64,000 bases of DNA from an uncultured virus (IMG/VR IMGVR_UViG_3300010002_000006) (IMGVR_UViG_3300010002_000006:124001-188000); one strand, 5' to 3'. Shown: positions 17,435 through 20,513, numbered from the stretch's first letter. The notes: generated from the sequence alone by a model not told the origin. Translations and numbers: made by a program.

Positions 17435-18163
17435 TCAGTCTTTTATACTGTCCCAGGTTTCGGCACACAAAGTAATTGACTCTGGTAATTTCTTTTCAGC
17501 GAGGAGCTTTTCAATGACCGGAAAAGCAATCTCCGCCTCAGTACCGTATACCAGGGAAACGTGGAGCAAGAGATCATCGTAGGAGTGTTCAAACCCCTCT
17601 TTGACCAACTGTTTGTGTCGCTCAAGCACACCTTCGGACTCTAAGATCAGCGCACACGCGCGCCACTTGGACCCGACTTTTCCCATCATTCTCACTTCCT
17701 TGATCTGCGCTTTAAACGCCTGATTAGAATAAGAGGGAATGATATTAGGATTGCGTTTGTCATACATGATGGTAGCGTGAAGGGTATTGATTGGAATCAG
17801 ATCCTTTACCTCTTCCCCTACTGCCGGCACAATGACGTTATACAATTTTGTTGCGCTGTTAAGATCAACATGTAACTCGGCATAGCCGTGATTAGCCATA
17901 AATTTGGGAACCTTTGTAATTTTGCCTGCACTGACTGCAAGTAACGCGGAGTCGATACAATCCTTGACAAATGTGTTTTCCTTTCCTTCTTTATTCTTAA
18001 AGCGATCGCTAAGAATAATGAGCAAATGCTCCTCAGTCAAACCATTGGTTGAGAATTCTAACCGGGCTACGCGGTCATCGTTTTTGTCATACACTTTGTA
18101 TTGGTCAGTTTCCCCATATACCGTGCGAATACGGCTGGACTCACCTCGATAGATTGTTCCCAC
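17435..18163 (-). CDS. acb1: Acb1-like (T4 57B-type) 2H phosphoesterase with N-terminal Tad1-like domain
   Basis: 2H motifs LHATIMY and LHVSLVY plus LES..L..RH...G..H.YDD as in Acb1. N-terminal NGLTEEHLLIILSDRFK...KEN...IDSALL resembles the Tad1 helical hairpin. GTG start at 18163 after AAAGGA. Confidence 0.75.
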   Translation of the reverse strand: MGTIYRGESSRIRTVYGETDQYKVYDKNDDRVARLEFSTNGLTEEHLLIILSDRFKNKEGKENTFVKDCIDSALLAVSAGKITKVPKFMANHGYAELHVDLNSATKLYNVIVPAVGEEVKDLIPINTLHATIMYDKRNPNIIPSYSNQAFKAQIKEVRMMGKVGSKWRACALILESEGVLERHKQLVKEGFEHSYDDLLLHVSLVYGTEAEIAFPVIEKLLAEKKLPESITLCAETWDSIKD

Positions 18164-18207
18164 GACATTTCCTTTAACGAGACAAAAAAAAAATAAGTAC
18201 AATAAAG

Positions 18208-18233
18208 GTAACCAGGGAATGACCCCTGGTTAC
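18208..18233 (-). terminator. Terminator hairpin
   Basis: GTAACCAGGG/CCCTGGTTAC stem; displaced T-tract. Confidence 0.7.
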
Positions 18234-18240
18234 ACTTTGC

Positions 18241-18918
18241 TTATTGTTCGTCGGTTGGATTATCGCGTTCGGCTTGTGCCGCTCGGCGTTCTTCGACTTG
18301 TTCCACCGACAGGATTTCTCCGTTGGTGACCGAGGTCGGGTCAAACAAGTTTGCCAGCAGATGCAGGTTCGTTGCTTGCCACGTTCGATGGATATCTGCC
18401 CGCTCTTTAAAACTCAGTTGGGTGAGAGAATCACGCGAACTGGAGTAATTAGTACGAGTCAGTGTTTCCGCTTCTTTGTCAAAGACGACTTTGCCATCCA
18501 TAGCACGGTTATAGAAATAGTTCTCTCGTCCAATACCGGTGCAGGCATCAGAGAAATCTCCATCATAACCCGAGATACGCTCTTCCAGATAGAGTCCCAT
18601 GGCCATCGGGTTTGCCATAATGTAATCCCGCATAAAGCCCGTGGCTTGCTGCTGGTATTTCACTTCTGACAGATAGCCGAGTTCAAAACGACCAACATAG
18701 GTTCCATCTTTACCGTTGAGGCGATTACTGAATTCCCACATACGACTGTTCATGAAGTTAGTGTGGGCTTCTTTTACCGAATCCAGCGCGCCTCCAAGCC
18801 AGCCGCCTAATCCCTCATACTTCTGATAAAGTCCGGCCATGTGTTGATCAAACACAGCAGCACTTCGTTCAGTCAGGGAGCCACTGGCGCCTCGCATAAA
18901 AGCAGCAGTTACGTTCAA
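18241..18918 (-). CDS. Hypothetical core protein following nvRNAP beta' N-terminal gene
   Basis: 225 aa ORF abutting 18921..20513. Confidence 0.7.
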   Translation of the reverse strand: MNVTAAFMRGASGSLTERSAAVFDQHMAGLYQKYEGLGGWLGGALDSVKEAHTNFMNSRMWEFSNRLNGKDGTYVGRFELGYLSEVKYQQQATGFMRDYIMANPMAMGLYLEERISGYDGDFSDACTGIGRENYFYNRAMDGKVVFDKEAETLTRTNYSSSRDSLTQLSFKERADIHRTWQATNLHLLANLFDPTSVTNGEILSVEQVEERRAAQAERDNPTDEQ

Positions 18919-18920
18919 GG

Positions 18921-20513
18921 TTATTCCTCTGCGATGGGTTCACTTAAGAGCAACGAGTTGATGTTCAACAGGTTAGTCTTGGTATGGGTCGCAAAACGAC
19001 TCAGTTTAAACGGACGGTTTGGATCCAACATCTGATGGTGACCCCAGCTACTATATGCTTCTACCTTGGACATCATATCCGGCAGGAAAATCACATACAT
19101 GGCATCGCCATCAAAGTCCGCGCCATATTCCTTAACCGTGGTAATCGGAATACGAATGGATTTATCATCAAGGTCACGAGAGAACTTGACAAAGAACGCA
19201 CGAGCAGACAGGTATTGAATCGAGGGGTTACGACCCGCTGTTGCCATAGCAAAGCGATTGTCTTCGACCCAGGTAATAAACTCCTCCACCAGAGGATGAC
19301 GATAGTTGTTTGCCGTACGAATGATTTCCTTCACTCGCATTGGGGTGTAGCCTCGGCGGTACAACCAGTTGGTGAGGTGTTTATCTAAACAGGTTAATGC
19401 ATAGAGCCAGGGTAATACAATTGTATCACTACGACAAACCCCTGACTCACCGGTGATGATAGAACGACCTGTTAAGGGCAATTTGCCCGCACCGGCATGA
19501 TAACGAATCATACCTTTCTTACCGAACAGAATATTTTTCTGTACGTTCATCAGTGCTTCAACGAGGCCTTTGGTGTTCTTACCCATGAGGTCTTCGTTGT
19601 CGGTCGCGCGGATATCATCAATGGGATACGTATCGGCGAGTGTAAAGTAAATCTTATCTAAGTCAGCTTGTTCTTTGTTGACATAACGGTCACGTTGGTC
19701 AGACTCCACAACCGTTGTGATTTTGTTGGGCAGCGGCAGGTATTTGAATACCGCCTTTTTACTGTACCGACGCCAGAAGGTAGCAAAGTCGCTACGGTCT
19801 TTTTCGGTGAGGTCCAGCACTTTACTGACATCCTGCTCGATTGCTGACATCACAATCAGGTTCATGTTGTCGATAAAACTGTTGTAACCAAACTCGATGT
19901 TTAACGTCGACCGGAAGCTTTCGATCTTCGCGGCAATTTTAAACGCGTTGTTGTTCGGGTCGGTGAAACGTTTGTCTTCCCGTACCGAAGGATCAATCCA
20001 ATACTCGACTAAGTTAACTTTGGGTGACTTGGTGTTGAGCTTACTAAAGAAGATGGCCCACATCGCGGGATTAATGAAGCCAGATACATAAGGCGGGGTT
20101 CGCAGCCACACCTTGGTCTCGATGCGTTGGGTTAAAGGTTTGATCACCTCATGCCCACACTCATCACATGTGATCTTCATGTCTTCATAAATGTTACTAC
20201 GAAACTTCTTACATTGACACGAGGCCACGGTATCGAAGCTGTTTCCTTCATACTCAGTGCGCAGCAATTCCACAATCGCTTCACGATGCTCTTCGATGTT
20301 GAAGTCGAAGTCGTTGAGATAGATCGGGGAAGTCACTGATAAATCGTGCTTGAGATCAAAGTCCTCGAAGTCAGGATACAGCGCTTTATAGAAGGAAGGG
20401 TCATCATTACGAGGTGTAATCCCCGCAACACTTATAATGCCATCAAACAACTTACTCGGAATCATGTTGTTATCCGCGTAGTTGCTGAGAATGTCCGCCA
20501 CCGTTGTTGACAT
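18921..20513 (-). CDS. Non-virion RNA polymerase beta' N-terminal/catalytic subunit (phiKZ gp55-56.1-like), uninterrupted
   Basis: Catalytic YGADFDGD, RNPSI, zinc finger CQC...CDECG. Confidence 0.9.
   Translation of the reverse strand: MSTTVADILSNYADNNMIPSKLFDGIISVAGITPRNDDPSFYKALYPDFEDFDLKHDLSVTSPIYLNDFDFNIEEHREAIVELLRTEYEGNSFDTVASCQCKKFRSNIYEDMKITCDECGHEVIKPLTQRIETKVWLRTPPYVSGFINPAMWAIFFSKLNTKSPKVNLVEYWIDPSVREDKRFTDPNNNAFKIAAKIESFRSTLNIEFGYNSFIDNMNLIVMSAIEQDVSKVLDLTEKDRSDFATFWRRYSKKAVFKYLPLPNKITTVVESDQRDRYVNKEQADLDKIYFTLADTYPIDDIRATDNEDLMGKNTKGLVEALMNVQKNILFGKKGMIRYHAGAGKLPLTGRSIITGESGVCRSDTIVLPWLYALTCLDKHLTNWLYRRGYTPMRVKEIIRTANNYRHPLVEEFITWVEDNRFAMATAGRNPSIQYLSARAFFVKFSRDLDDKSIRIPITTVKEYGADFDGDAMYVIFLPDMMSKVEAYSSWGHHQMLDPNRPFKLSRFATHTKTNLLNINSLLLSEPIAEE

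Follow-up and report, generated by a model that had tools for sequence, protein, structure and literature searches.

A probable Tad1-derived domain with an apparently dismantled ligand pocket, fused to an Acb1-family enzyme in a chimallivirus-like jumbo phage

The DNA examined here, called the window below, is a stretch of 64,000 nucleotides from an uncultured virus in IMG/VR (IMGVR_UViG_3300010002_000006:124001-188000). The source is a chimallivirus-like jumbo phage whose complete virus record of 260,738 bp carries direct terminal repeats; the named phage closest to it is Erwinia phage AH04 (genus Meadowvirus, family Chimalliviridae), with 76% nucleotide identity over the gene stretch and 72% protein identity. 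On the minus strand of the window lies a single gene whose product joins two domains, an N-terminal one that very probably descends from the signal sponge Tad1 and a C-terminal one of the Acb1 nuclease family. We refer to proteins of this architecture as fused, and to those of relatives in which a Tad1-like gene and acb1 are separate as split. The features of the locus are as follows.

17435..18163, minus strand: the fused gene, from GTG 18163 to a TGA stop, 242 amino acids
17924..18163, minus strand: probable Tad1-derived domain, residues 1-80, with beta-strands at residues 3-6, 10-15, 18-26 and 31-36 and a shortened helical hairpin at 44-56 and 61-78
18050..18055, minus strand: junction F37/S38, where nine residues are absent; they correspond to the beta4-alpha1 loop, which reads QxGFVxEEx in split relatives and holds the position of CbTad1 R57
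17900..17923, minus strand: Lys-rich linker KITKVPKF, residues 81-88, in place of the Arg-rich end of alpha2 and the C-terminal lid
17897..17899, minus strand: ATG of Met89, internal here and the acb1 start codon in phages with separate genes
17438..17899, minus strand: Acb1-type 2H phosphodiesterase domain, residues 89-242
17771..17779, minus strand: first catalytic motif, H129-A-T131, aligned with LHTTIVY of FBB1 Acb1
17555..17563, minus strand: second catalytic motif, H201-V-S203, aligned with PHITLSY of FBB1 Acb1
18168..18175, minus strand: Shine-Dalgarno-like AAAGGAAA, 4 nt upstream of GTG 18163 and 7 nt from the GG core
18208..18233, minus strand: terminator-like hairpin of 11 pairs with a T-rich tail, found by pattern scan, which ends the upstream gene and precedes the fused gene

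The reading frame, taken from the list of open reading frames (ORFs), the sequence and its translation, agrees with the rest of the family: the fused homologues are co-linear (n = 16, 224-245 amino acids), and 15 homologues of this size range begin in the same column as GTG 18163, one of them being a shorter gene call. An earlier annotation made by a model from the DNA alone, the sequence-only reading, had proposed just this single 242-amino-acid frame, which is real and is supported by the common start column; the N-terminal residue strings that it quoted are likewise present in the translation. It had also proposed a second start at ATG 17899 with a ribosome-binding site of its own. The ATG is indeed there, and Met89 is invariant in 16 of 16 aligned rows, but the binding site is weak: the pairing energy with the anti-Shine-Dalgarno sequence is -3.8 kcal/mol before ATG 17899, as against -5.6 before GTG 18163 and a median of -5.1 for the first ATGs of 231 long ORFs, and 22% of the 1,713 internal in-frame ATGs of the genome that served as background have a signal that equals or beats it. 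These values bear on the idea that one messenger RNA yields two isoforms with different roles, the 242-residue fusion from GTG 18163 and a free Acb1 of 154 residues from ATG 17899. The invariant Met89 corresponds to the ancestral acb1 start codon, and all six fused DNA sequences examined have an A(A/G)GG motif 11 nt before its codon; however, these nucleotides double as the coding sequence for the linker's conserved Lys/Arg-Val, and the pairing energy is not above the internal-ATG background. We consider two isoforms rather improbable. A longer, TTG-initiated frame of 255 amino acids, whose start would fall inside the T-run of the terminator, finds no support in the homologues, which start instead at the GTG 18163 column; the hairpin and T-run also precede the fused gene in AH04 and at loci L006-L008 and L012. 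Rfam gives one weak match, to the small RNA frnS, which covers the terminator hairpin and the beginning of the gene (window 18116-18240, minus strand); its score of 24.3 bits (E = 0.36) is below the gathering score, which is 60, and we take it as chance.

The C-terminal half is an Acb1-family 2H phosphodiesterase. The Pfam model for Acb1 (PF23474, cut-off 27 bits) scores 45 bits with the whole protein and 45.9 bits with residues 89-242, the same residues match phrog_755 (E = 9.6e-21), and a scan of the phage genome with PF23474 finds the fused gene only (E = 1.1e-12). The two 2H motifs named in the sequence-only reading, HAT and HVS, are both present within this domain, and H129, T131, H201, V202 and S203 do not vary in any of the 16 rows; for comparison, the available part of PMC9117128 gives the catalytic HxT/HxT tetrad of Acb1 as H44, T46, H113 and T115 in T4 numbering. 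The predicted structure of residues 89-242 agrees with this assignment, since solved Acb1 enzymes are the best fold matches in Foldseek (E = 1.7e-5 to 9q2y and 2.6e-4 to 7t26). The best reading is that the Acb1 half would be active.

For the N-terminal half, homology to Tad1 is well supported, mainly by sequence profiles and gene order, and we hold it to be very likely. The resemblance of the first ~88 residues to the Tad1 core, which the sequence-only reading had proposed, is borne out by alignment, though by way of the split relatives. BLASTP aligns the window's N half with OBP_060, the Tad1-like protein of phage OBP, at E = 7e-7, and gives no alignment with N1M2_39, its counterpart in phage N1M2, at E<=100. 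Comparing profiles with hhalign, the fused-only profile matches four split proteins (98.2%, E = 4e-14) as well as five Tad1-like proteins of non-jumbo phages that were found by the OBP_060 search (90.3%, E = 1.5e-6; reversed-sequence controls for the latter, 0.2% and 0.1%). An index-free search of 1.84 billion representative proteins shows positions 1-84 of the fused-family profile matching a stand-alone Tad1-like protein of 149 amino acids (P0165, E = 1.6e-7), and the split protein N1M2_39 matches solved Tad1 directly (8kbb, E = 4.8e-7; 7uav, E = 1.2e-6). The full-length predicted model has four strands and two helices within residues 1-80; the structural evidence for a Tad1 fold is mixed, with one whole-domain fold match.

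Several negative results weigh against this homology. The 16-sequence fused-only profile, searched against the PDB, returns no solved Tad1 at E<=10, its sole match being phiKZ gp184 at E = 0.39; the Pfam model Acb2_Tad1_hairpin (PF24729) has no match at E<=10 in the protein or in the phage genome; and PHROGs contains no match for the window's N half. Pfam likewise has no direct match for it, and the N half of AH04 finds in PHROGs only phrog_2428, at E = 0.17. As to PF24729, a local Pfam scan with it also misses the split proteins N1M2_39 and OBP_060, so the model is insensitive to this branch of Tad1. An HMM (hidden Markov model) built from the four split proteins and run with filters off over the phage genome picks out the fused ORF alone (E = 9e-4), and a search of the same genome with OBP_060 gives nothing at E<=1, missing the fused gene itself.

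The phiKZ protein gp184 merits a remark of its own. This inner-capsid vertex protein (PDB 8y6v, chain I) carries a C-terminal Tad1-like segment at residues ~158-226, which is matched by the profile of our alignment A2 at E = 2.4e-7 and by N1M2_39 at E = 0.012, in addition to the fused-only match just mentioned. The capsid study, in the portion available, treats gp184 solely as a structural filler (PMC11297242), and the accessible text of PMC11724313 reports that AntiDefenseFinder picks out a single anti-defence gene in phiKZ, which it labels Tad1. A Tad1-like protein packaged in the virion could be delivered along with the phage DNA.

If the fold is that of Tad1, what has become of its pocket? 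In CbTad1, glycocyclic ADP-ribose (gcADPR) and cyclic dinucleotides are bound in a pocket at the dimer interface that is lined by F82, N92, R109 and R113 (10.1101/2023.11.15.567273, sections 6 and 7). The double mutants F82A/N92A and R109A/R113A lose binding of both gcADPR and 2'3'-cyclic GMP-AMP (2'3'-cGAMP); the pocket is closed by the beta4-alpha1 loop, with R57, together with a C-terminal lid at residues 116-122; and a separate site for cyclic trinucleotides lies at the hexamer interface, at R90 and T97 (10.1101/2023.11.15.567273). We mapped these residues through alignments, a chain-index offset of +1 reproducing all eight named residues, and counted them in alignment A2, which has 15 fused and 12 split rows. 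Arg occupies the R109 position in one of the 15 fused rows, as against all 12 split rows; Asn stands at the N92 position in 5 of 15 fused rows, the window's among them, as against 12 of 12 split; no row of either kind (0/15 and 0/12) is aromatic at the F82 position; and the R113 position is basic (Lys or Arg) throughout, in 15/15 and 12/12. The nine columns of the beta4-alpha1 loop are gapped in all 15 fused rows and filled in all 12 split ones, and the C-terminal tail of the split proteins, RxRxDDRxxRGVSNT, is missing from every fused row. The absence of the Arg-rich C-terminal segment of Tad1, which had been suspected from the sequence, is thereby confirmed by alignment. Five further residues between the helices are missing in 12 of 15 fused rows, and the remaining three, resembling phage Kc263, keep four of the five and are an intermediate state of this trimming. 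Even the split relatives fail to conserve the residues of the trinucleotide site (R90, T97) and of the hexamer interface: the counterpart of R90 (window residue 62) is E, I, L, T or Q in fused and Q, H or Y in split proteins, and that of T97 (window residue 68) is D, E or S in fused and E or T in split ones.

The canonical Tad1 pocket thus appears, from these alignments, to be dismantled in the fused domain, which is probably no longer a canonical sponge; with the pocket gone, high-affinity sequestration of signals is most likely gone as well. The sequence-only reading had seen here a sponge joined to a nuclease. Its Tad1-plus-Acb1 architecture stands, but a working sponge is not supported, given that the loop, the lid and the majority of the pocket residues validated by mutation have been lost. 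A reading closer to that original view would be a two-in-one inhibitor, in which the N domain still sequesters Thoeris signals or those of CBASS (the cyclic-oligonucleotide-based anti-phage signalling system) with a changed specificity and the C domain breaks down CBASS signals. It would accord with a Tad1 homologue under purifying selection (see below), with the uniformly basic R113 position and with Lys at K87 in 13 of 15 fused rows. The window protein itself retains Asn63 at the N92 position along with Lys84 and Lys87, so residual nucleotide binding is possible, a point that tells against our own interpretation. Moreover, the accessible text of 10.1101/2025.07.12.664507 describes an Acb4-Tad2 fusion that blocks both Thoeris and CBASS, the protein library holds a Tad5-Acb1 fusion (P0093), and no other sponge is recognisable in this phage, whose genome has no match to the Tad2, Acb4, Sequestin or Acb2/Tad1 hairpin models (PF11195, PF13876, PF21825, PF24729). 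Yet the two elements that close the pocket are missing from 15 of 15 fused rows, three of the four lining positions have largely or wholly lost their side chains in those rows, the CbTad1 mutants altered at these positions bind neither gcADPR nor 2'3'-cGAMP, and the trinucleotide site finds no counterpart even among split relatives. A sponge that still functions is accordingly, in our estimation, unlikely.

The origin of the gene can be read from its relatives. In the split phages N1M2 (Klebsiella), Yubaba (Serratia), OBP (Pseudomonas) and SXP01 (Shewanella), a Tad1-like gene of 107-151 amino acids runs right up to the start of acb1: the two are set apart by one or two stop codons, with <=2 codons between them and the stop 0-3 codons before the ATG, and in three of the four both genes share a frame. 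A tblastn search with OBP_060 turns up 111 phage records with Tad1-like genes, among them those of the Aeromonas jumbo phages D3 and AerS_266, where the gene is again directly upstream of acb1; the depositors of AerS_266 labelled the two "Anti-Thoeris, immune evasion protein" and "Anti-CBASS, nuclease". A tree built from 30 Acb1 domains places every one of the 17 fused rows in a single clade, which has 19 members (support 96/98); the split forms lie outside it, as do the Acb1-only phages Survivor and pEt-SU. The other two rows of that clade, P0018 and P0022, are of uncertain architecture, since the contigs that carry them are 2,098 and 938 bp long. With all 17 fused rows in one clade, the tree is compatible with a single fusion event. 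The ancestor would have had a stand-alone Tad1-like sponge gene directly followed by acb1, and in one lineage, that of the window phage, AH04, Kosakonia phage Kc263 and uncultured relatives, a deletion may have removed the last ~20 tad1 codons with the stop and joined the frames.

Pantoea phage Survivor has acb1 alone, with a non-coding gap of ~90 nt in the place of tad1 (L011:1908-2000), and Edwardsiella phage pEt-SU (L010) also has acb1 alone at the same locus. In the tree their Acb1 domains group in a clade of their own, apart from the fused one, which indicates that they lost the Tad1-like gene independently. Such loci could be taken to mean that the N half is a decaying remnant or a leader, that only Acb1 is made, from ATG 17899, and that the 88 codons upstream are being lost, as in Survivor; the invariant Met89 would fit this as well. 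However, neither Survivor nor pEt-SU belongs to the fused clade, so neither can illustrate loss from an ancestor that carried the fusion. The rates of evolution speak on both sides. Pairwise ratios of non-synonymous to synonymous substitution (dN/dS) among six DNA sequences (15 pairs) are 0.09-0.34 for the N half (11/15 pairs computable) and 0.055-0.11 for the C half (10/15), and in 9 of the 10 pairs that allow comparison the rate of the N half is 2-3 times that of the C half, as might be expected of a remnant. It must be set against these figures that dS is high (0.6-2.7), which makes the ratios rough. The N-half values are nevertheless far below 1, and both halves are under purifying selection. 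Twelve N-half residues are invariant across the 16 rows, whose frame stays open in every case, down to 50% identity, and the Shine-Dalgarno-like signal is the stronger one at GTG 18163. A decaying N half seems to us very unlikely.

We therefore arrive at a reading in which the gene, produced by fusion of adjacent tad1 and acb1 genes, encodes an active Acb1 equipped with a Tad1-derived scaffold or capture module; its probability we put at roughly 0.6. The Acb1 half would be the main working part, cleaving the 3'-5' bonds of CBASS cyclic di- and trinucleotides by analogy with the Acb1 enzymes of T4 and FBB1. The Tad1-derived half, which would have kept its beta-sheet and the shortened helical hairpin and given up two mobile elements and most pocket side chains, would serve the enzyme, most plausibly as a putative module for self-association or scaffolding that goes back to the Tad1 dimer or, alternatively, as a low-affinity surface for substrate capture by way of the retained basic K84 and K87. 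The linker that bears these two residues is a low-confidence part of the model (pLDDT, the predicted local distance difference test, is 43 for residues 84-92). Two considerations temper this reading: enzyme activity and loss of binding are both deduced from sequence, and the scaffolding or self-association role is a proposal.

Why would a phage discard a sponge pocket? Panoptes is a guard system that fires when a phage sponge soaks up its decoy cyclic dinucleotide; both CbTad1 and ColiTad1 trigger it, and some phages have lost the dinucleotide site of Acb2, as described in the available part of PMC12657218. It may be speculated that Panoptes supplied the selective reason for the loss of the pocket. 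On that bolder hypothesis, which we think a long shot, the fused protein is a disarmed sponge, its Tad1 pocket and lid deleted under pressure from guard systems and its self-association core kept and welded to Acb1. Were this so, the product would be an oligomeric or substrate-channelling nuclease that clears CBASS signals without tripping sponge sensors, and a first case of a sponge fold put to new use as an enzyme's accessory.

The genes around the fused gene are conserved, and its nearest neighbours in the window are the following.

18921-20513: a piece of the RNA polymerase beta' subunit, neighbour of the fused gene
18241-18918: phrog_3254 gene, between the RNA polymerase beta' piece and the fused gene

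The order in the window, RNA polymerase beta', phrog_3254, fused gene, a gene of 57 amino acids, phrog_3294, phrog_14597 and SbcD, is kept in AH04, Kc263, N1M2, OBP, Yubaba, SXP01, Survivor and Aeromonas phage D3. Relatives of the window protein occur in 86 phage records, 11 of which cover at least 80% of the protein; four of the 11 are fused (AH04 and Kc263) and seven are split-gene. Fused proteins make up 16 clusters in the protein database (224-245 amino acids, down to 50% identity), and a scan of IMG/VR yielded 5 loci. In four relatives (loci L006:2300-2520, L007:2300-2520, L008:2300-2530 and L012:1800-2010) an ORF of ~55-62 amino acids lies between the terminator and the fused gene, in a different frame, and overlaps the start of the latter. 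It encodes a conserved module, RMDKAL..E.I..P.GLSREEKR.FIL, that is found in frame at the N-terminus of the stand-alone Tad1-like proteins P0025, P0029, P0033, P0035 and P0165; another small module, IHLKVP..RS.VE.LIL, occurs in N1M2_39, P0024, P0027 and P0030. Both modules are missing from the window phage and from AH04, and window positions 18164-18240 hold no counterpart of the ORF. Finally, P0099 (100 amino acids) follows the family, with an N domain like that of Kc263, over its first ~55 residues and then continues as a basic tail with no relation to it; it is probably a frameshifted or mis-assembled copy of the fused gene.

Acb1 is also found joined to other modules. Among 36 proteins scanned there are four fusions of a GNAT acetyltransferase to Acb1, one of a portal protein, one of DarA_N, one of Tad5 (PF25190, a type I Thoeris inhibitor), which makes another anti-Thoeris plus anti-CBASS fusion, and one with a weak Mu F-like domain below the Pfam cut-off (in all, P0050, P0087, P0125, P0137, P0093, P0156, P0171 and P0132); neither PF24729 nor Tad2 occurs in any of the 36. 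Six proteins of 207-230 amino acids (P0105, P0121, P0148, P0178, P0183, P0159) have in common an N-terminal module of ~65-70 residues before Acb1, made of strands and then a helix containing TLQEA, with no Pfam match. The notion that it is a Tad1 trimmed still further was dismissed, hhalign giving 0.1-0.3% against the fused, split and non-jumbo Tad1 profiles.

Both parts of the fused protein are thus of known kinds, and what appears to be new is a trimmed Tad1 joined to Acb1. We found no description of a Tad1-Acb1 fusion in the literature; the supplements of 10.1101/2023.11.15.567273 and 10.1101/2025.07.12.664507, which might mention one, lay outside this coverage. Accounts of how phages counter nucleotide immune signalling generally class the protein as a sponge or a nuclease, and the fusions reported to date consist of two intact sponges. 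The present locus offers an evolutionary series of four stages in living relatives: a full tad1 beside acb1, a pocket-less Tad1 core fused to Acb1, this fusion with a further loop deletion, and, elsewhere, acb1 alone. It amounts to a natural experiment on what the Tad1 fold contributes apart from ligand binding, on whether tethering affects the kinetics or oligomeric state of Acb1, and on whether sponge-sensing host systems drive the loss of sponges. It has a bearing on annotation too, as homology tools may call such genes "Tad1" or "anti-Thoeris" though the defining pocket is gone.

Compared with known systems, the C-terminal half has the 2H fold, both His motifs and the ~150-residue length in common with Acb1 (T4 gp57B; Erwinia phage FBB1, 7T26/7T27; the Burkholderia phage BCSR5 phosphodiesterase, 9Q2G/9Q2Y, for which our literature search found no paper; PF23474). 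Identity with the solved enzymes is only 16-18%, however, and the second motif is HxS here and HxT in the Acb1 of T4 and FBB1. Furthermore, the fused protein bears an 88-residue N-terminal Tad1-derived domain, whereas the Acb1 described in the accessible text of 10.1101/2025.07.12.664507 is a free-standing monomer.

With Tad1 itself (CbTad1, 7UAV/7UAW/8SMD/8KBE; CmTad1, 8KBB-8KBD), the fused domain shares, within residues 1-80, the conserved core F..NG(L/V).E..L..I..DR...C..AL and probably also the N-terminal antiparallel sheet and the two-helix hairpin. Unlike Tad1, it is without the beta4-alpha1 loop, the R109-bearing end of alpha2, the C-terminal lid and the F82 region, and it is covalently joined to an enzyme. 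A further comparison is with the adjacent tad1-like/acb1 pairs (OBP gp060/061, N1M2 gp39/40, Yubaba, SXP01, D3 and AerS_266), which have the same locus, gene order and flanking genes, and whose acb1 part is 37-47% identical to that of the fused protein. These pairs differ in encoding separate proteins with a full-length Tad1-like partner, in which the N92, R109 and R113 positions are Asn, Arg and Arg in 12 of 12 rows and the RGVSNT tail is kept.

A last parallel is provided by the fusions Acb4-Tad2, from Pasteurella phage Pm86, and Sequestin (PF21825), which likewise place two counter-signalling modules in one polypeptide. As the part of 10.1101/2025.07.12.664507 available describes them, these join sponge to sponge, each pocket being intact and each function tested, whereas the gene described here would combine a sponge-derived domain, its pocket apparently dismantled, with an enzyme.

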